DNA of 64,000 nt. Source: Heterodontus francisci (taxonomy: Eukaryota). The stretch covers positions 71,500,903 to 71,564,902 of the forward strand of contig NC_090374.1 in assembly GCF_036365525.1 (NCBI RefSeq), in the 5' to 3' direction. The position numbers were made by a program, and so were the translations under genes. A model generated the notes under the pieces. It worked only from the letters and a program-made list of their open reading frames with translations. It was not told the DNA's origin and did no database searches. Positions within the stretch are counted from its first letter, which is position 1. Every line of letters begins with the position of its first letter. Below are positions 350 through 47,760 of the stretch, one piece after another.

Positions 350-1804
350 CTCCAACTAGAGATGGGGCCATACTGGACCTGGTATTGGGGAATGAGCCCG
401 GCCAGGTGGTCGAAGTTTCAGTCGGGGAGCATTTTGGGAACAGTGACCATAATTCCATAAGTTTGAAGGTACTTGTGGATAAGGATAAGAGTAGACCTCG
501 GGTGAAGGTGCTAAACTGGGGGAAGGCTAATTATAACAATATTAGGCAGGAACTGAAGAATTTAGATTGGGGGCAGCTGTTTGAGGGTAAATCAACATCT
601 GACATGTGGGAGTCTTTCAAACGTCAGTCGATTAGAATCCAGGACCGGCATGTTCCTGTGAGGAAGAAGGATAAGTTTGGCAAGTTTCGGGAACCTTGGA
701 TAACGCAGGATATTGTGAGCCTAGTCAAAAAGAAAAAGGAAGCATTCGTAAGGGCTGGAAGACTAGGAACAGATGAATCCCTTGAGGAATATAAAGACAG
801 TAGGAAGGAACTTAAGCAAGGGATCAGGAGGGTTAAAAGGGGTCATGAAAAGTCATTGGCAAACAGGATTAAGGAAAATCCCAAGGCTTTTATACGTATA
901 TAAAGAGCAAGAGGGTAACTAGGGAAAGGGTTGGCCCACTCAAGGACAGAGAAGGGAATCTATGTGTGGAGCCAGAGGAAATGGGCGAGGTACTAAATAA
1001 GTACTTTCCATCAGTATTCACCAAAGAGAAGGACTTGGTGGATGATGAGCCTAGGGAAGGGAGTGCAGATAGTCTCAGTCATCTCATCATCAAAAAGGAG
1101 GAGGTGTTGAGTGTCTTGCAAAGCATTAAAGTAGATAAGTCCCCTGGGCCTGATGGGATCTACCCCAGAATACTGAGGGAGGCAAGGGAAGAAATTGTTG
1201 GGGCCTTGCCAGAAATCTTTGTATCCTCATTGGCTACAGGTGAGGTCCCAGAGGACTGGAGAATAGCCAATGTTGTTCCTTTGTTTAAGAAGGGTAGCAA
1301 GGATAATCCAGGAAATTATCGGCCGGTGAGCCTTACGTCAGTGGTAGGGAAACTATTAGAGAGGATTCTTTGGGACAGGATTTACTCCCATTTGGAAACA
1401 AACAAACTTATTAGCGAGAGGCAGCATGGTTTTGTGAAGGGGAGGTAGTGTCTCACTAATTTGATTGATGAAGGAAGGGCAGTGGATGTTATCTATATGG
1501 ACTTCAGTAAAGCCTTTGACAAGGTCCCTCATGGCAGACTGATACAAAAGGTGCACCCAGTGTACAGGTACAGGTATTCTCTGCCCTACAAAAGGTGAAG
1601 TCACACGGGATCAGAGGTGAGCTGGCAAGATGGATACAGAACTGGCTCGGTCATAGAAGACGGAGGGTAGCAGTGGAAGGGTGCTTTTCTGAATGGAGGG
1701 ATGTGACTAGTGGTGTTCCACAGGGATCAGTGCTGGGACCTTTGCTGTTTGTCGTATATATAAATGATTTGGAGGAAAATGTAGCTGGTCTGATTAGTAA
1801 GTTT
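350..1804 (+). mobile_element. CR1 (HER1-like) LINE ORF2 internal fragment, endonuclease C-terminus to RT; frameshifted; carries a 33-bp foreign insert at 1554-1586
   Basis: ORFs 295-903, 966-1448 and 1595-1864 give PTRDGAILDLVL, GNSDHN, KSPGPDG, PGNYRPVSLTS, QHGF and SGVPQGSVLGP; ends abruptly before the FADD motif. Confidence 0.95.
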
Positions 1805-10921: not shown

Positions 10922-11430
10922 TATGAAAGCTGCCACATAGGTGCCCACCGATTACAAAATTACAGCTGTGAGACAAGTTTCCTTGAGTACCTTAATACTT
11001 AAGCCAAATTGAACCAGTAACCTACTGCAAATGCAGCACAAAGGAAAGTAATGAACATGGTTAAGATTCTAGGATTGCAGAATTCAAACCTAAAATAGTG
11101 TAGGTGAGAAAGACTGAAGAATAAATACAATTATTCATACATTCAGACTGATAATTACAGGGCACTCTGTCAGCTCCAAAATTCTCCAAAATTTCAGTGG
11201 GCAAAATACTTCATATTTGTGTCAACTATAGATAATGTTAAAAACAGCTCTGCTGCTTAAAATACAGAACAGAAAATATTTGTTCATTCAATTCATATTT
11301 ATTTCATTCTTTACAGAAAATAAAAAAAATATTGCCAACAGAAGGTAGAGTACAAATGGTGGAGAGACTCAGCAGGTTAAGCCTCTCACCTCATGAAGAT
11401 ACTTCATGGAGGTCATTGGCTGGGAAACTA

Positions 11431-12140
11431 GGTGAAAGTTTATTAATCTTAAAATCTAATCCGGTCAACAACTACGAATATGCAATGCTACCACACTAGC
11501 ATGCACACATGCAGATAGAGACAGAAAAAGTAGAAGGAATAAAGGGGAAAAGTTTGAGGCAATATCTGGTATGTACAGTCCTTTAAGTTCAATGTGGAGT
11601 CTTTGGTTGCTGGTAAAGTCTTGCAATTTGTTGGGGCCCAGTTCACGCTTCAACTTGTTCCGATGTAGGAGTCTTTACTCTCTTGAGGTTTACGTATCTT
11701 CCATGGGTCCAGTGGCTTGGGAGAAAGCGAGAGAGAGCCAGCCAGGAAAGAGAGGCTTCCTTGCTCCAGTTTCAGTTTCAACTGCCTTCTGCGTCTTTCT
11801 CTGTGGCACAATTCAAAAAACCCAGTTTGTCCAGCAGGTTAGTCATGTGACTAGCTAGTTTGACCACTTCTGTTTGTGGATTCTGCCATCTTAGCAGTCA
11901 TCCTAGAATGTGAGCTTCCTTGCCTTCAATGAATGGTGATCAAAGTCCATTGTGGGTTAAGTGGATCAGGGAGCACTCCTTTTGTCTCTCGGAGCACTGT
12001 CTATTAGTATGCAAATGTTTTTCCAGCCACTGCTGATCTGTTTAACAAGACATTTCTTTGCCCCAGCAACAGTTTAAAATCAATGTTCATATGACAAAAT
12101 TAATATGCCTCATTTTTGGCAGGTGGGGGTCTGCATGACA
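11431..12140 (-). repeat. 3' LTR of the Gmr1-like element, missing about 190 bp at its outer end
   Basis: Aligns to 16721-17443; purine-rich GGGTGTGGAGG precedes TGTCATG on the minus strand. Confidence 0.9.
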
Positions 12141-13765
12141 CCTCCACACCCAGCGGAATGAAATGCAATTATTTTAAAAGAGCATTTCATTAAAAAGAAG
12201 TAGAGAGAAGATAAGGACAGGAACACACACACACACGCATCTCTCTCATTCAGAACCCTAACAATTGTTACAGCCTGTCTTTTCTTGGTAGCAGTGCTGA
12301 TTTAAATGGTCCTTTTGGCATCCAAAGAAACATGTGGTTTTTGGGGAAGTTTTGTCCAGTTTGCACATGTCCATGACTGCTTAAGGGGTCTTTGTTCTTG
12401 TTGAGGTCTGCAGGGGGAGGGTTCGGTTTAATTAGCCTGAGGTTGGAATTCTGTTCAGGGGTGGCGGCAGTGGGCAGTTCCACTCTGAACTCTCTTTCAG
12501 TGCCTTGATGAGTCATGCAAGGGCTTTTCACCCTTAGGGGATGGCTGGTTCCCTTTTTTCCTGACTGGGGGTGGATTCTTTGCTAATCTTCCCTTTGTCC
12601 TCTGGGACACTCCTGCTTGCAGATATTTGTCCAGATTCTACTGTACTCCCCTGTGGCACTTTGAATAGGCGAGGCATCACCCTCACGGTTTCTCTGCCCT
12701 CTTGAGGACTCTCTTTGTCTCTGCAGGTTCCTGTAAATACTGTTAGTCACCCTGGTGGGGTGCTTCTAGTATCTGCATTTACATAGGAGGATGCGGGGTA
12801 TACTTTTTCAAGCATTTTGGGGTTGGCTGACCAGACAGTAGGGGTCTTCATCCGGGATTCTTCCCAGACTTCCTTTAACCTGCCCTTTTGGACCCTTTTT
12901 CCCTTTTCCTGTCTAACCTGTTGCCAGGTTTGTGCCTGCCTGCCCACTTTTGTTCTCGGCAGGGGTCCCTTACAGTTCACCAGCCCTCTGCTGGAGAGTC
13001 CTCCAAACACCGATACAGGGGTGCAGATTTCACTGTAGGTTGGTGTTTTCCCTCAATCTGGCAACTCCTGCAATATTCCACCACATCTTTGTGGTTTTGG
13101 TCAGTCAAACTGCTGTCTTATGCGGGCTTTGGTTTCTCATACACCGTCATGTACAGTCACTGTAATCTCGTGGGCCATTCTTACTAATTCTCTCCAGTAC
13201 CTCTGCGGCACCACTAACTGGTAAACCACAGTCCACTCTTTGTCCTCAGGTCTGTGAGGAGGACTCTATTTCCTCATCAGTACCTCATTCTTTAAGTAGT
13301 AGCAATCAGGGACTCCTTCTGCTTCAATTTCAGATTGGGCAGCCTGTACTAACTCTCTCAATACTGGGTCAGCTCACTGAGTCTCAGTGAGGGAAGATCA
13401 ATTTACTCATTCCCTAAGTCTTCCAGCTTTCCAAAGAAAGTCTCAGATAGACAGACCTCATGGCCATCTGCCTACAGTGCCAATTCAGTCTCCTCTCGGG
13501 GAGCTGGTTTGATCATGGCCTGATCCACTACACATTCAGGGAAACTGCAGGGGACCGTCTCCTGCCACTGCCCTGTCTTTCTGACCTCCGGTGGTCTCTC
13601 TTTCACTACTAGGGAAACTACCACATTCGTCCCCACCAGATCATTACCCAGGAGCAGGTCAACCCCATCCACAGGCAAACTAGGCACAATCCCTACGGTC
13701 ACCAGTCCCGAAACTAGGTCACGCTCCAAGTGCAGCCAGTGTACAGTTACAGGCATTCTCTGCCC

Positions 13766-14913
13766 TACAAAAGGTGAAGTCACATGGGATCAGAGGTGAG
13801 CTGGCAAGATGGATACAAAACTGGCTCGGTAAGAGGAGACAGAGGGTAGCAGTGGAAGGGTGCTTTTCTGAATGGAGGGCTGTGACTAGTGGTGTTCCAC
13901 AGGGATCAGTGCTGGGACCTTTGCTGTTTGTATTATATATAAATGATTTGGAGGAAAATGTAGCTGGCCTGATTAGTAAGTTTGCAGATGACACAAAGGT
14001 TGGAGGAGTTGCGGATAGTGATGAGGATTGTCAGAGGATACAGCAGGATACCGATCGATTGGAGACTTGGGCAGAGAAATGGCAGATGGAGTTTAATCCG
14101 GACAAATGTGAGGTAATGCATTATGGAAGATCTAATACAGGTGGGAAGTATACAGTAAATGGCAGAACCCTTAGGAGTATTGACAGGCAGAGAGATCTGG
14201 GCGTACAGGTCCACAGGTCACTGAAAGTGGCAACGCACGTGGATAAGGTAGTCAAGAAGGCATACGGCATGCTTGCCTTCATCGGTCGGGGCATAGAGTA
14301 TAAAAATTGGCAAGTCATGCTGCAGCTGTACAGAACCTTAGTTAGACCACACTTAGAATATTGCATTCAATTCTGGTCGCCACGCTACCAGAAGGACGTG
14401 GAGGCTTTGGAGAGGGTACAGAAGAGGTTTATCAGGATGTTGCCTGGTCTGGAGGGCATTAGCTCTAAGGAGAGGTTGGATAAACTCGGATTGTTTTCAC
14501 TGGAACGACGGAGGTGGAGGGGCGACATGATAGAGGTTTACAAAGTTATGAGTGGCATGGACAGAGTGGATAGTCAGAAGCTTTTTCCCAGGGTGGAAGA
14601 GTCAGTTACTGGGGGACATAGGTTTAAGGTGCAAGGGGCAACGTTTAGAGGGGATGTGCGAGGCAAGTTCTTTGCACAAAGGGTGGTGAGTGCCTGGAAC
14701 CTGCTGCCGGGGGAGGTGGTGGAAGCAGGTACAATAGCGACGTTTACTAGGCATCTTGGCAAATACATGAATAGGATGGGAATAGAGGGATACGGTCCCC
14801 GGAAGTGCAGAAGGTTTTAGTTTCGACAGGCATCAAAATCGGCGCAGACTTCGAGGGCCGAATGGCCTGTTCCTGTGCTGTACTGTTCTTTGTTCTTTGT
14901 TCTTTGTTCTTTG
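13766..14913 (+). mobile_element. Young 5'-truncated CR1 LINE inserted in the protease region of the Gmr1-like element
   Basis: Open 348-aa RT C-terminus (GVPQGSVLGP, FADD, LVRPHLEYC); (TTCTTTG)n tail; TACAA at both ends (13766-13770, 14914-14918); removing it restores host frame VVNGIVGQRMPV. Confidence 0.96.
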
Positions 14914-16508
14914 TACAATACCATTCACCACCATTCTGGTGTTCAATGCACTCTCTGGGGGTAAGGTCAGACCTTTTCCCAGTAAAAGGAATCAAGTGGC
15001 CACTCTGTCCCTGAGAATTAGTATGGGCTTGCTTGCCTCACTCGAGGGGTATGGCTTTATTCTTCCTTCAGACACATAACCCTATAAAACCCTATTAAAT
15101 TTTCCTGCACTTGCCGCGGTAGACTTCCTGGGTCTCACTCTTACAGCAGTTAAAGCCACAGCTTGTTCTGCTGTGCTTTCCATCAGGGTCCCTTCTTCAC
15201 TGAGCAGGTGTGCCCTGATTAACCCTACAGGTTTTCCCTTTAGTTTCCAGCAGTCAGCTTTTAAATGCCCTGCTTTATTACAACGGAAGCATACAGGTCT
15301 CCAGGTCTCACTCCTACTTATTGCACCTTCCTTTTTGTCTGGAGGAAGGCACCCTGTGTCTACTGCTTTTCTTCCCCTCCCCAAACTGCTTGGGCTTCTA
15401 TCACCTTCCCACCCTCTGTCCTATTTGAATTTGTGGGGGTGAGTAGGAAAGGTTTTCCCCTGGGAAACTGACTTATAAGTGAGAGCAAATTCATCAGCCA
15501 GGACTGCTGCCGGCCAGGCTTTATGAGCCTTTTGCTCCTCCACATGTGTCTATATGGAGAGCGGGAGAGAGTTTTTAAATTCATCTAACAAAATTACTTC
15601 TCTGAGATTTTCATAGCTGAGCTGTATTTTAAGAGCCCTCAGCTACTGGTCAAAAGCCAGCTGCTTATTTCTCTCAAACTCCTGGTAAATTTGAACAGCT
15701 TGCTTCTTGAGGGTTCTAAACTTTTGGCGATAGGCTTCCGGTACTAACTCATATGCCCCGAGGATAACAATTTTTGTCAGTTCATAATTTGATGAACTCA
15801 CATCTGGCAACGTGAAATAAACCTCATGGGCTTGTCCTACTAATTTACTTTGTAACAGCAGAGTCCAAGCCTCAGCTGGCTACTTTAATTGCCTTTCCAA
15901 TTTTTCAAAAGACACAAAAAGCACTTCCTCATTGAATTTTGGGATCAGTTGGAAAAGTTTTAATAATTCTGTACCCAGCCCTGAATTACACTCCTCCATA
16001 TTGGCCATGCTTTCACTGGGATTGCTCTGTTACCCTCTATTTAACTCAAGTCGTCACAGCTCTCTTTCTTCACATTCATTCTGGAAGGTTCTTTCTCTTT
16101 CTGTCTCCTCTCTCTCTCTTTCTCTTTCCCTGTTTTCTAATTCCAGTTTCCTCTGTTCCAGTTATATCTTTGCTAGCAGTCAGAGTCTACTTCCAACCCT
16201 GTTTCTGCTTCTTCAGATTCAAGGAAAAATGGTTGGCCACTAGTCTTAGGAGTTCAGACTTCTTAACCTTGCCACGTACAGTGATCCCACACTGCTCAGC
16301 CATTTTCCTCAACTCCTCCATAGACAGTACTTTTAACTTATCCCAAGTTACTTACACCCTGGCTTGGGGAGCTTCTAGCTTCAGTCACAGACATGTTAGT
16401 ATTCTAGCACACACAACCACAACAAAGCCTGTACTGAAATCTTTTCTCTTTTTTTATTGGGAACAATGTGGTTTCCCACTTCCAATTTCTCATTTGTCAT
16501 GGGTCAAA

Positions 16509-16527
16509 TCTCTGATGCTAGCCCCCA
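16509..16527 (-). promoter_or_regulatory. Degenerate tRNA-Pro-like primer binding site
   Basis: Minus strand reads TGGGGGCTAGCATCAGAGA just inside the 5' LTR; canonical Pro PBS begins TGGGGGCTCGTCC. Confidence 0.55.
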
Positions 16528-16533
16528 AGTTTC

Positions 16534-17443
16534 TGTTATGACCAGGTGAGGAGGGGTCTAGGGGTCCCTCTCAGCCTTTGCCTGGTTTAACCATAACAGG
16601 GTTTAATTTTAAAAACACCGTGTTTTTAGTTTAACCCCTCAGTGAGTCCTTGCTCACTGCTCTCTAATTGTGATTTCATATAAACCAACCAGACAACTTT
16701 CCTCAGGTTTAAACAAGAAAGGTGGAAGTTTATTAATCGTAAACTCTAATCTGGTTAACGACTACGAATATGCAACGCGACCACATTAACATGCATAGGT
16801 GATAAACACACACGCAGATAGAGACAGAAAAAGTAGAAGGAATAAAGGGGAAAAGTTTGAGGCAATATCTGGTAGTTACAGTCCTTTAAATTCAGTGTAG
16901 AGTCTTTGGTTGCCACTAAGTCTTGCAATTCGTTGGGGCCCAGTTCACACTTCAACTTGTTCCGATGGAGGAGTCTTTACTCTCTCGAGGTTTACGTATC
17001 TTCCATGGGTCCGGTGGCTTGGGAGAAAGTGAAAGAGAGCCAGCCAGGAGAGAGAGACTTCTTTGCTCCAATTTCAGTTTCAACTGCCTTCTGCGTCTTT
17101 CTCTGTGGCACAATTCAAAAAAAACCAGTTTGTCCAGCAGGTTAGTCATGTGACTAGCTGGTTCGACCACTTCTGTTTGTGGATTCTGCCATCTTAGCAG
17201 TCATCCTGGAATGTGAGCGTCCTCACCTTCAATGTCTAGTGATCAAAGTCCATTGTGGGTTAGGTGGATCAGGGAGCACTCCTTTTGTCTCTCGGAGCAC
17301 TGTCTGTTAGTATGCAAATATTTTTCCAGCCACTGCTGATCTGTTTAACAAGACATTTCCATGCCCCAGCAACAATTTAAACTCAATGTTCATATGACAA
17401 AATTAATATGCCTCATTCTTGGCATGTGGGAGTCTGCATGACA
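16534..17443 (-). repeat. 5' LTR of the Gmr1-like element (910 bp)
   Basis: TGTTATG...CATGACA inverted termini; direct repeat of 11431-12140. Confidence 0.92.
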
Positions 17444-17636: not shown

Positions 17637-18325
17637 TTATTATAATCAGTGTTTCAGCAGGTGTACAGTATGTTGCACTATAAAATGTGCCATGTACTGA
17701 CTGTGCAGCAGCAACATGCCTAATTATGATTGCTGACTTATCATGTGGCCTTTTCTTATTATTACATTATTCCAGAAGGAGCATGCTGCTCACCAACAAT
17801 TCTTACAATTGCATTCAGCATCATTATCACTATAAACAAGCAACAGCATAGAGACAGACACTCCAGCAGCTTTCCAAAGATTTAGGAAGGGAATTACGTG
17901 ATGATTCATTTTTATGGGTATGCAAGAAGCCGAGTGGAGATGGAGGACGAATCATAGAATCATGGAAATGTTTAGCACGGAAAGAGGCCATTAGCCCCAT
18001 TGTGTCCCCACCGGCCAACAAGTAGCCATCCAGCCTAATCCCACTTTCCGGCTCTTAGTCTGTAGCTTTGTAGGTTATGGCACTTCAAGTGCATAGCCAA
18101 GTACTTTTTAAATGTTATGAGAGCTTCTGCCTCTATCACCCTTTCAGGCAGTGTGTTCCAGATTCCCACCACCATCTGGATGGAAAGATTTCACCTGGAA
18201 TCCCCTTTAAACCTCCTATTTCTCACTCTACATCTATGTCCCTTGGTTATGGACTCCTCAACCAAGGGGAATAAGGCCTTCCTATCCACACTATCTAGAC
18301 CCCTCAAGTATTAGGTCCCCCCTCA

Positions 18326-18458
18326 GCCATGTACTGACTGTGCAGCAGCAACATGCCTAATTATGATTGCTGACTTATCATGTGGCCTTTTCTTATTATC
18401 ACATTATTCTAGAAGGAGCAAGCTGCTCACCAACAATCCTTACAATTGCATTCAGCAT
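18326..18458 (+). repeat. 133-bp direct copy of unique-looking sequence 17689-17821
   Basis: Near-identical GCCATGTACTGACTGTGCAGC...TTGCATTCAGCAT at both positions. Confidence 0.95.
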
Positions 18459-20240: not shown

Positions 20241-20838
20241 GGCAAGTCATGCTGCAGCTGTACAGAACTTTAGTTAGGCCACACTTAGAATATTGCGTGC
20301 AATTCTGGTCGCCACACTACCAGAAGGACGTGGAGGCTTTGGAGAGGGTACAGAAGAGGTTTACCAGGACGTTGCCTGGTATGGAGGGCATTAGCTATGA
20401 GGAGAGGTTGGAAAAACTCGGATTGTTTTCACTGGAACGACGGAGGTGGAGGGGCGACATGATAGAGGTTTACAAAGTTATGAGTGGCATGGACAGAGTG
20501 GATAGTCAGAAGCTTTTTCCCAGGGTGGAAGAGTTAGTTACTAGGGGACATAGGTTTAAGGTGAGAGGGGCAAAGTTTAGAGGGGATGTGCGAGGCAAGT
20601 TCTTTACACAGAGGGTGGTGAGTGCCTGGAACTTGTTGCCGGGGGAGGTGGTGGAAGCAGGTACCATAGAGACGTTTAAGAGGCATCTTGACAAATACAT
20701 GAATAGGATGTGAATAGAGGGATACGGACCCCGGAAGTGCAGAAGGTGTTAGTTTAGGCAGGCGTCAAGATCGACGCAGGCTTGGAGGGCCGAATGGCCT
20801 GTTCCTGTGCTGTACTGTTCTTTGTTCTTTTGTTCTTT
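20241..20838 (+). mobile_element. Young CR1 3' fragment, same subfamily as 13766-14913
   Basis: Near-identical to about 14310-14910, including the TTCTTTG tail. Confidence 0.95.
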
Positions 20839-22626
20839 GATTCACTTTCAAGTAGCTGTTTCCAGTCCACTTTAGCTCAATCACATCTCAGCTTAGTAAA
20901 ATTAGCTTCATCTCAATTGAGAACTTTTATTCCTATTCTACATTTGTTCTTTTCCATAACTACACCAATTATAACAGAATTATGTTCACTTCCATCAAAG
21001 TGTCCTCAAATGATAGCCCCTCCACATGTGCAGCTTCATTCCCCAAAAATAAGTCCAGAACCGCCTGCTCTCTTGTTGGTACCAGCTAAAAATATTCTCC
21101 TGAATGCACTTTAAGAAATCTGTTCCCTCTCTGCCTTTCATACTAATTCTATCGCAATTAGTATTAGAGTAGTTGAAATCCCTTCCTATCACTGGCCTAT
21201 TGTTTTGACACGTCTCAAAAACTTGCAAGATGTTTGCTCTTCTACCACCTTCTGACTGTTTGCGGATCTACAGTATACTCCCAGTAGCGTGAAGGCCTCT
21301 TTCTGTTCTTCATTTCAACCCATATGTCCTCATTTGATGATCCTTCTACCATATTATCCCACCTCAGAGCTATCATTGTTTCTTTAATCAATATTGCAAC
21401 CCTCCTTTCCTTTTTTTAACCCCCTCTCTATCTTGTCTGAAAATATTGCAACCAGGAATGTTCAGCTGCAATTCCTGCCCTTCTTTCAGCCATGTCTCAG
21501 TAACAGCTATAATATCATACTCCCACATGTCAATCTCTGCTCTCAGCACATCTGCCTTATTCCCTAGGCTTCTTGCATTGAAGTATATACCATTTCGCAC
21601 TGCCAAACTCCCTTGTGGTCTATTTTCTAGCTATTGTTTCCTCTGTCTTCCAAACATACTAATTTTCTGCCTTCCATTTCCAGATTTTCTTTTCTCCCTT
21701 CTGAATCTATTCTCTGGTTCCCATTCCCCTGCCAAGCTAGTGTAAACCCTCCCCAATAGCAGCAGCAAAAACCCTCTGTGAGGAGTTTGGGCCCTGCCCT
21801 GTTGAGGTGCAAGCCATCCGGCTTGTGCAGATCCCACCTCCCCTAGAAGCAGTGCCAATGCCTCAGGAATCTAAAGCCCTCAGCCCTACACCATCTCTCC
21901 AGCCATGTATTCATCAGCTCTATCTTCCTATTTCTGTATTTACTAGCACGTGACACTGAGAGTAATCCAGAGATTATGACTTTGAGGTCCTGTTTTTCAA
22001 TCTTTCTCCTAGCTCCCTAAACTCTGTTTGCAGGAGTTCATCCCTCTTTCTGCCTATGTCATTGGTGCCGAAATGGACAATAACCTCTGGCTGTTCGCCC
22101 TCACCCGCTCAGTGACATCCTTGACCCTGGCACCAGGGCTGCAACATACGTTCCTGGAGTCACATCTGCAGTGTTCCCCTCACTATCACCTCCCCTACCA
22201 CTATTGCTCTTCTACTCTTCCTCTCCTGTCCCCTGTGCAGCTGACATTTATTGTTGCTAAATTTCATTTCTCACTTTAGTACTTTTTCTTCAAGACTGAT
22301 GACTGATGGAAACATATTGAGAAGAAGCAATGAGTATGTGATTCCATGTTAATGTCCTGTGTGATAGTCCCCCATACCTAGTTCAATCTCTGGGGATTGA
22401 AGGATTGCTCCTCGCTCAACAGAAAGTCCTTTGCCTTGTCTTTGTACCATTTACTGTGATCTATAGATCTTATTCTGCAAATCTTGGTAACATATTCTGC
22501 AGTTTTTCATAGAGATTTTGTAGTTCACAGCTGAAATGGTCCACAGTACTGTGGTTATTATGGTTAAGTAAATAATTAAGCAAATCTGGAAGGTACTTTC
22601 CAATTGGGCACTTATTTGCATTGTAT

Positions 22627-25040: not shown

Positions 25041-25222
25041 ACTAATGTCTCCCTACCTCTTTTTCTCAGGATGAAACCTTGCCACAGCACATTTCCCCAC
25101 CCCTTCCAACATTCCAAACAGCCTCTCCACTCCACTCCACATGCTTCTCTTCAATCACAACAGGACATTGCACCAATCCTCCTTCTAAATCCAATTGCAA
25201 GCTCACTTGCTGCTGCCCTCAG

Positions 25223-25598
25223 TGTTAGAGAAACTGTCAAGCCTGTTTGTGAAGAAGACACTGAGACTAGGATGCTTTGGTGTAGATTGTTTATTGCTTG
25301 TCACAGAGCTTACTTCTGCTCTCCAAACAACACCACCAGCCAGTGCTGGCTGGCTCTTCTTTATATATACATACTTGAATACAATTGAACCCTAATTAAC
25401 ACCCTACACCTATTCATCCTATTATCTTGAACTTCCAGGTAGTTATCATCCATTAACAGAACTTTAGATCCTAACAGAGTCTTCCTTTTATCTTTATATT
25501 CAATACATATATATAAGAAATAGAAATAAAAAACAAATAATGACACATTTTTCTTTACATTATTTATCAGTAACTTTCAACAGCACCAGCCATTAACA
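25223..25598 (-). repeat. 3' LTR of the copia element (about 376 bp)
   Basis: TGTTA/TAACA ends; 25223-25291 matches 30268-30336; polypurine tract AAGGGGGGAA about 10 nt upstream on minus. Confidence 0.8.
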
Positions 25599-30248: not shown

Positions 30249-30266
30249 AACCATCCTCTGCTACCA
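30249..30266 (-). promoter_or_regulatory. Primer binding site for initiator tRNA-Met
   Basis: Minus strand TGGTAGCAGAGGATGGTT, 1 nt after the LTR-terminal CA. Confidence 0.92.
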
Positions 30267-30336
30267 ATGTTAGAGAAATCTCCAAGCCTGTTTGTGAAGA
30301 AGACACTGAGACTAGGATGCTTTGGTGTAGATTGTT

Positions 30337-46531: not shown

Positions 46532-47760
46532 AGGATTCTTACCCGACCCGACGGGACCCAATGACATGTCAGATTCAGGTTGAGTCAGGTCGCTCTTCCA
46601 GGTACGGCTTTTGAGCTAGGGCCGGGTCTGGGTCGGAGACACACAGTATTAATTGGTCTTGAAAGGTTGTTTAAAAAGATGAAGACTGGAGCCACAAAGT
46701 CAGTGACTGTTTGGTCACGAGTTAAACAGATGCAGAGACCAGGAAGGTCCTGAGTGATTCATTTAATAAAATATACAGTATTTATATGAAAAATATAAAA
46801 TGATCACTATCAGGACTCTAGTCTACACACATACAGTACTGTACTGTATGCGTGTAGACTAGAATCCTGATAGTGATCAACTGTATATTTTATAATAATT
46901 AATCACTCAGGACCTTCCTGGTCTCTGCATCTCAGTTGCTCACTGGATAAACTTGCAGCAAGTATTTCAACCTGTAAAGCAAGAGTCTAGGTAATGTATA
47001 ATGATATTTTCTGAGCCTTCGGGCAATTGCTGCGTTTATTTTAAGCAATACTGGTACAATGTGACACAACCTGTCTGGGCACAACTCCATGGGTTTCTGT
47101 TTAACTCGTGACCAAACAATCACTGACTTCGTGGCTCCAATCTTCATCTTTTTAAACAACCTTTCAAGTCCAATTACAGTTTTTGTTGCTTATCTACACA
47201 AACTGAAAAATTGAAAAACAGATTCGGAATTGGAAGGTAGGTAAAGTGAACATTCCGGTGGTCGGGTTGGGCTCGGGTCGGGCTCGGGTCAGGTCGGGCG
47301 CAGGAAAAAATGGAAGGACTCGGGCCTAAAGGCCTCCTCAGGTCACCAAAAAAACCCGACCTGAACCCGACGGAACTCCATCGGACCCGAGCCCGAATCG
47401 GCCGGAGTCCCTCCATTCTTCCCCTGCGCCCGACCCAACCCAAGCCCGACTCGAGCCTGACCAGACTAACGGAATGTTCCTTTTACTTACCTTCTGACTC
47501 CCAATCTTCAGGAAGCTGCAGCATCTTATAGAGATGCTCACTCGCTCACTGCGCATGTCCTGGACTCACAGCTCAGGTTGGTTTTTTACTTACCTGCGAC
47601 ACTTACCTGCAATTCTTGCTGTATGTGTCTGACCCGGACCCGGCCCGACCCAGACCCGGCCCAACCCGAGCCCGAAAGCTGGACCTGGAAGAGCGGCCCG
47701 ACCCAAGCCGAGTCCGACATGTCGTCGGGTCCTGTCGGGTTTGGTTTGGGTAGCAGGCCT
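46532..47760. mobile_element. TTAA-flanked long-TIR foldback element (Kolobok/T2-MITE-like)
   Basis: TTAA|AGG...CCT|TTAA; imperfect TIRs over 110 bp; extra internal inverted repeats. Confidence 0.7.

Follow-up and report, generated by a model that had tools for sequence, protein, structure and literature searches.

How a 33-bp piece of an LTR element came to lie inside a CR1 LINE, joined to it at the same base as in a second CR1 copy 12 kb away, is the question raised by this locus of Heterodontus francisci. Both CR1 copies, which we call copy A and copy B, are present in the window, that is, the whole stretch of 64,000 nucleotides that was analysed. The original prediction offered three explanations, namely a template switch that copied the junction from the neighbouring locus, an amplified LTR::CR1 chimera that underwent recombination with a longer CR1, and a CR1 subfamily with a captured LTR-element tag that guides insertion by homology. 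Our analysis indicates that the event was most likely a known kind of DNA-repair copying accident, which happened as a one-off, rather than the mark of a targeting tag.

Copy A and its insert

Copy A consists of the following features.

351-1553, plus strand: left part of copy A, a 5'-truncated internal fragment of CR1 ORF2, with an RVT_1 match at 897-1445
1543-1553, plus strand: first copy of a duplicated CR1 11-mer, of which the last 3 bp, GTG, are microhomology with 13730-13732
1554-1586, plus strand: insert of 33 bp from the LTR-element DNA that adjoins the 5' end of copy B, matching 13733-13765 at 30 of 33 positions
1587-1804, plus strand: right part of copy A, 218 bp of CR1 reverse transcriptase (RT) sequence with no tail (RVT_1, E 1.9e-7)

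The predicted CR1 extent of 350-1804 held at its end, and its start was moved to 351, where the CR1 match begins. Alignment confirmed the predicted arrangement, in which the insert lies between two copies of an 11-mer (TACAAAAGGTG at 1543-1553 and again at 1587-1597), differs from 13733-13765 by 3 mismatches (at 1556, 1568 and 1575), and is followed by CR1 sequence that resumes at the identical base in both places (1587 = 13766). The match between the two loci extends leftward by 3 bp through the common GTG (1551-1553 = 13730-13732) and continues without gaps to 1804 = 13983, giving 254 bp in all, of which 13 differ. A match of 36 bp with no more than 3 mismatches has a probability of about 5e-12 in a window of 64 kb, and a chance origin of the insert match is therefore excluded. 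Compared with CR1 family copies, copy A has a net gain of 44 bp, which comprises the 33 bp of foreign DNA and the 11-bp duplication.

The Pfam match of the left part to RVT_1 (E 4.9e-6) fell short of the curated cut-off, and the private divergence of this part was 2.05% (23 of 1122 sites). It also has a 30-bp internal deletion near 1467, which we considered as a special signature and rejected, 49 of 112 CR1 copies having a deletion of at least 8 bp. The deletion is flanked by short repeats, and the deletions of two other copies (L026 and L116) begin nearby too.

Copy A is 3'-truncated and has neither a tail nor a target-site duplication (TSD), which are features of non-classical LINE insertion. 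Its right end shows possible microhomology to the flank of up to 3 T, and both flanks are single-copy in the genome. A search of the window and of the 80 kb upstream did not recover the lost 3' part. The 3' end was reached within the fetched stretch by 74 of 87 sampled CR1 copies, and at most 5 of the remaining 13 appear, as judged by eye, to be truly truncated. The missing tail of copy A, where few of the sampled copies look truly cut, speaks against two independent insertions. An automated TSD scan of 38 copies gave mostly 0-6 bp and was too crude for use.

The donor locus

The sequence matched by the insert is located at the edge of copy B, in the following setting.

11430-17443, minus strand: decayed, internally shortened LTR element that hosts copy B, with LTRs at 11430-12140 and 16720-17443
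13730-13765, plus strand: donor stretch, LTR-element DNA from a protease-like region with its coding sense on the minus strand, adjoining the 5' end of copy B
13766-13770, plus strand: TACAA, the left copy of the 5-bp target duplication of copy B and also its 5' microhomology with CR1
13766-14913, plus strand: copy B, a 5'-truncated CR1 with a (GTTCTTT)n tail, antisense in the LTR element (RVT_1, E 2.4e-17)
14914-14918, plus strand: right copy of the 5-bp target duplication of copy B

The private divergence of copy B was 2.5% (27 of 1072 sites). For its insertion site, 30 of the best 40 matches to the LTR flank, copy B included, were fetched. Among the 29 others, 28 aligned gap-free on both sides at offset 0 with TACAA counted once, and 1 gave no alignment on the right side; a CR1 at this site was absent from all 29 of these best-matching LTR-element copies. 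In addition, 13 other places that match the right flank of copy B carry the identical 5-mer there. Judged by these alignments, copy B is an ordinary 5'-truncated LINE insertion, in which the 5-bp duplication doubles as microhomology with CR1. The tail and this duplication identify copy B as the place where the junction arose. The RVT_1 matches and the short tandem-repeat tail of copy B are features of CR1-group LINEs, and both copies are presumed to belong to the CR1 clade.

The two LTRs of the host element differ at 50 of 710 sites. Its interior (12141-16719), which yielded no RT, amounts to only about 3.4 kb without copy B, and the element is therefore probably an internally deleted copy. 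The Pfam domains found were SCAN, zf-CCHC and, immediately behind the protease-like stretch, Integrase_H2C2; the integrase domain has this position in another copy of the element (L039) as well. The donor had been described as Gmr1-like protease DNA. The protease-like pieces gave no Pfam match, and protease is thus a putative label; the Gmr1-like part of the description is supported only by the layout, which may fit Gmr1-like elements, in which the integrase is reportedly placed before the RT in a Ty1/copia-like order (work cited in PMC4131045).

The CR1 family is represented in the window a third time, by a short copy in the same orientation at 20241-20839; it is placed inside an older antisense LINE and looks younger (6 of 546 private sites).

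Copy number of the junction in the genome

We searched the 6.0-Gb assembly for each junction. A 25-mer across the LTR-element/CR1 junction, with up to 2 mismatches allowed, gave 2 matches, which were copies A and B, both oriented alike and separated by 12,179 bp, in agreement with the predicted pair at 12 kb; the 25-mer across the CR1-to-insert junction gave 1 match, copy A. The adjoining CR1 31-mer had 10,785 exact matches, of which 90, all in the first 17 Mb of one contig, were fetched and 3 dropped as tandem duplicates. The panel was enlarged with 30 of the 321 copies that carry a 35-mer of copy B, of which 24 were kept after 6 were dropped as tandem or already included. The insert tag was found in 0 of the 111 other CR1 copies thus sampled, including the 24 chosen for the copy B haplotype.

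A CR1 subfamily carrying the tag as a guide for homology-directed insertion is barely credible in view of the unique CR1-to-tag junction and its absence from the sampled copies; moreover, the tag ends exactly at the 5-bp duplication of copy B, and it therefore derives from the site of copy B. An amplified LTR::CR1 chimera that recombined with a longer CR1 is very improbable as well. It is opposed by the occurrence of only two junction matches, by the single-copy flanks of copy A and by the lack of a CR1 at this site in the 29 LTR-element copies, to which can be added those marked by rare flank letters: a 23-mer over these letters had 12 genome matches, comprising copies A and B and 10 copies of the LTR element, none of which (0 of 10) has a CR1 at the site of copy B. 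No evidence in favour of either explanation was found. The two junction matches are what a template switch from the neighbouring locus would leave, and this explanation was supported.

As judged by eye, 0 of 20 other insertions in CR1 copies appeared to have an architecture like that of copy A, and these insertions looked like tandem duplications or retroelement pieces. Some CR1 matches in the genome were regularly spaced, at about 2.55 kb (L157-L160, G000:C1:25.82-25.84 Mb) and about 18.8 kb (L003-L006, G000:C1:68-128 kb), and are probably tandem arrays. At one further place (L090, G000:C1:4000815 and 4001256) the same CR1 31-mer is found on opposite strands 441 bp apart, possibly by inversion or fold-back.

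Identity of the donor and age of the copy

Copies A and B share two flank letters that are rare in the LTR element, one occurring in 2 and the other in 1 of the 29 further copies. One of the 10 LTR-element copies with the 23-mer (L077) is nearer to the insert than copy B, with 1 mismatch, and copy B is hence pinned as the donor by the resume point and the proximity, not by the 36 bp alone. The insert has one identifiable donor on the same chromosome, the junction of copy B.

At the three sites in the 36 bp where A and B differ, the letter common among LTR-element copies is found in A twice and in B once; at the two sites, the letter of copy A is common in 24 of 29 and 28 of 29 copies. Both loci have therefore mutated since the copying, which argues against a mis-join in the assembly. 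The 3 differences in 36 bp indicate that the age of the copying event is more than about 0.35-0.39 of the age of copy B (5% quantile), with a median of about 0.77, and the copying would thus date from a large fraction of the age of copy B, early in its life.

These differences also bear on the explanation that the insert is an assembly or read artefact and absent from the animal, to which we give only a slight chance. No contig spanning the insert was among those listed for three runs of one sample. Contigs of the best-matching sample were identical to the window at 1-380 and 1777-2935, agreeing with the outer junctions of copy A, and they reach 30 and 28 letters into copy A, just short of the 31 letters required for bridging. 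Another individual had about 13 raw reads over the insert; no more than 3 of these could be from A or B, and the majority showed the letters seen in other copies of the LTR element. However, the junction of copy B was likewise missing among the contigs listed, such contigs drop rare variants, and a mis-join from the copy B of today cannot give an insert that differs from it at 3 of 36 sites and keeps the common letter at 2 of them. In the runs of three other organisms, the near flanks of copy A were without coverage. A contig end that resembled an empty allele of copy B was explained by the occurrence of this 5-mer ahead of the flank at 13 other places.

Extent of the copied tract

In the 218-bp CR1 part that follows the insert, 5 private changes were found in B and 2 in A, and none was common to both; copy A was closer to 60 of 82 other CR1 copies than to B. 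The match between A and B in this part is, on this comparison, apparently family similarity only. One minority letter is common to A and B at 1720/13899, which is a CpG-type site, and is also present in 5 of 66 copies that have the 13880 letter of A. The subfamily marker at 1701/13880 is C in B and the common A in copy A. Since there are no common private changes and this marker differs, either the tract included less than about 114 bp of CR1 or it was copied when B was new. The alignment itself shows 33-36 bp copied, and a tract of up to 254 bp is possible.

The absence of the 5 private changes of B from A also weighs on a route through RNA, in which a read-through transcript over the 5' junction of B would be reverse transcribed from the tail of B, switch to a longer CR1 RNA and insert at A, with a later 3' loss. 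The intact tail of copy B would permit this route, but copy A has no tail, the 25-mer search of the genome revealed no other retrocopies of the B junction, and a retrocopy, which can insert anywhere in the 6.0 Gb, would by arithmetic come to lie as close as 12 kb to its donor with a chance of only about 4 in a million unless insertion is tethered; we thus regard it as quite improbable.

Source elements of the two copies

The lack of a tail and of an end duplication in copy A leaves room for a rival in which copy A is a by-product of the insertion of B itself, so that a single CR1 retrotransposition would account for both footprints, 12 kb from each other. In this rival, the RT would jump from the RNA to the upstream target DNA at the 5-bp microhomology, copy 36 nt and return 11 nt behind; the looped-in target copy would fix the 5' end of B, and the 1.45-kb cDNA piece would patch a second break 12 kb off. 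One step would then explain why the left part of A ends 11 bp past the first base of B, why no tail or end duplication is present and why the age of A is like that of B, with private divergences of 2.05% and 2.5% and a copy older than about 0.35-0.39 of the age of B. Insertions of L1 by the endonuclease-independent route also occur without a tail or a TSD and often with extra DNA, as described in PMC1920257.

On the other hand, three uncommon steps are required together, and the similarity of the ages is weak evidence, as the family has a median private divergence of 1.85%, with 28 of 83 copies reaching at least 2.0%. The rival further needs one RNA for A and B, yet the marker at 13880/1701 differs. 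A-type left markers were present in 3 of the 20 copies with the two-site haplotype of B, compared with 39 of 45 with the letter of A, and by a copying-model score the combination of A-left and A-right was at the 46th percentile of true pairs, while that of A-left and B was at the 6th-9th. Downstream markers weakly place B in the C-haplotype group, which made up 9 of the 15 nearest copies in the enriched panel and 2 of 10 in the unselected panel. The CR1 subfamily haplotypes are linked but strongly mosaic along the element (L003-L032, L083-L142, L153-L182), which suggests that source RNAs have often recombined or that gene conversion has acted among the copies, and marker linkage is loose because of this mosaicism. 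Overall, the subfamily markers lean moderately toward different source elements for A and B. The idea that the left part of A is simply the lost 5' part of B became less likely with these marker tests, and we consider an origin of both copies in one retrotransposition unlikely, though with an appreciable chance.

Proposed mechanism

The explanation that we prefer, and hold to be probable, is that the junction of B was copied once, at the DNA level, into the separate neighbouring CR1 copy A by a template switch during break repair or at a stalled fork. In the first step, target-primed reverse transcription would have placed B in the older LTR element, the 5' end of B being joined at the 5-bp microhomology. 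A leftward-growing strand would then have taken B as a template through CR1-CR1 homology and overrun the 5' edge of B by 36 nt. Finally, the strand would have switched back to A at the GTG microhomology (3 bp), 11 nt within the border of the homology, leaving the 11-bp duplication. What is observed is that the junction is unique and old, that it was copied from B to A, and that it has a microhomology of 3 bp and a duplication of 11 bp; from this we infer the template-switch route. The junctions of copy A, with the GTG microhomology, the 11-bp duplication and no poly(A) tail, have the characteristics of a locally templated repair insertion.

The template switch may have two variants. In the short-tract variant, the junction alone would be copied and the 3' end of A lost separately, so that a second event is needed for the missing tail; in the long-tract variant, all 254 bp would be copied and the 3' end of A lost in that event. 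The case for a template switch is weakened by the 5 private changes of B, whose absence from A leaves the copying of the CR1 part with no direct sign. By a rough hand estimate, the likelihoods of the two variants and of the origin in a single retrotransposition lie within about fivefold, and prior plausibility thus decides between them. The possible repair pathways would be indistinguishable by sequence.

The window also contains other local duplicates. A 133-bp direct duplicate (17689-17821 and 18326-18458), 97% identical and 637 bp apart, lies 4 kb from copy B; it has two full-length genome matches only, and its second copy adjoins an older antisense LINE fragment. It looks like a textbook proximal repair-mediated duplication, and its location 4 kb from copy B indicates that local copying occurs in the region. 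A further direct duplicate of 72 bp (25220-25291 and 30265-30336, 93%) and an inverted one of 81 bp (46650-46730 and 47096-47176, 95%) were also found.

Comparison with known systems

The locus has its value as a readable example of a LINE copy serving as a repair template for its neighbour and dragging flanking DNA along. As best explained, the scar would be neutral, lying in dead repeats. LINE-to-LINE repair copying may also contribute to the mosaic CR1 subfamily haplotypes. If the two footprints did come from one retrotransposition, copy A would be a fossil of an intermediate that makes LINE 5' truncations, and if that were true or if such pairs were common, they could provide a record of LINE 5' joining and of the fate of lost 5' cDNA. 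Literature searches, mostly at title level, gave no report of the exact A/B layout. One-sided invasion is said to have been treated by Belmaaza and Chartrand in 1994, and the use of other LINE copies to mend breaks in a LINE was reportedly dealt with by Tremblay, Jasin and Chartrand in 2000.

Copy B, with which alone this first comparison is concerned, resembles ZfL2-1, a different LINE for which annealing-type 5' joining and a 5-bp duplication length were reported (Yamaguchi et al, 2014, PMC4245944), in that its 5' end is joined at microhomology and its duplication is 5 bp. Copy A resembles the non-classical L1 insertions noted above (Sen et al, 2007, PMC1920257) in that both of its ends are truncated and it has neither a tail nor an end duplication, and differs from them in that its extra DNA is internal, not terminal, and comes from the junction of a neighbour.

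A closer likeness in layout is to the repair-mediated duplications of Pace, Sen, Batzer and Feschotte (2009, PMC2671141), in which, as in copy A, a transposable element copy is split by a short duplicate of sequence that the chromosome has at a single other site. The reported ranges are a microhomology of 2-9 nt, a duplication of 4-21 nt and no poly(A), and copy A lies within them, with 3 nt, 11 nt and no poly(A); its halves resume 11 bp back, where the proximal set of that study allows up to 30 bp. On the other hand, the confident set in that study has a donor within 5 kb, and copy A, with its donor at 12.2 kb, is not a member. The foreign part of copy A is 33-36 bp, as against a cut-off there of 50 bp inserted, although up to 254 bp is possible. 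Also unlike those cases, the donor for copy A is the edge of a homologous element, and long homology probably chose the template.

This last feature is shared with one-sided invasion and with FoSTeS/MMBIR, in which an end copies a homologous template, overruns the homology and rejoins at microhomology (reviewed in PMC4888836). The A/B case is inferred from a fossil of the vertebrate germ line rather than observed in an assay; the scheme of invasion, overrun and rejoining that would account for it is the same.
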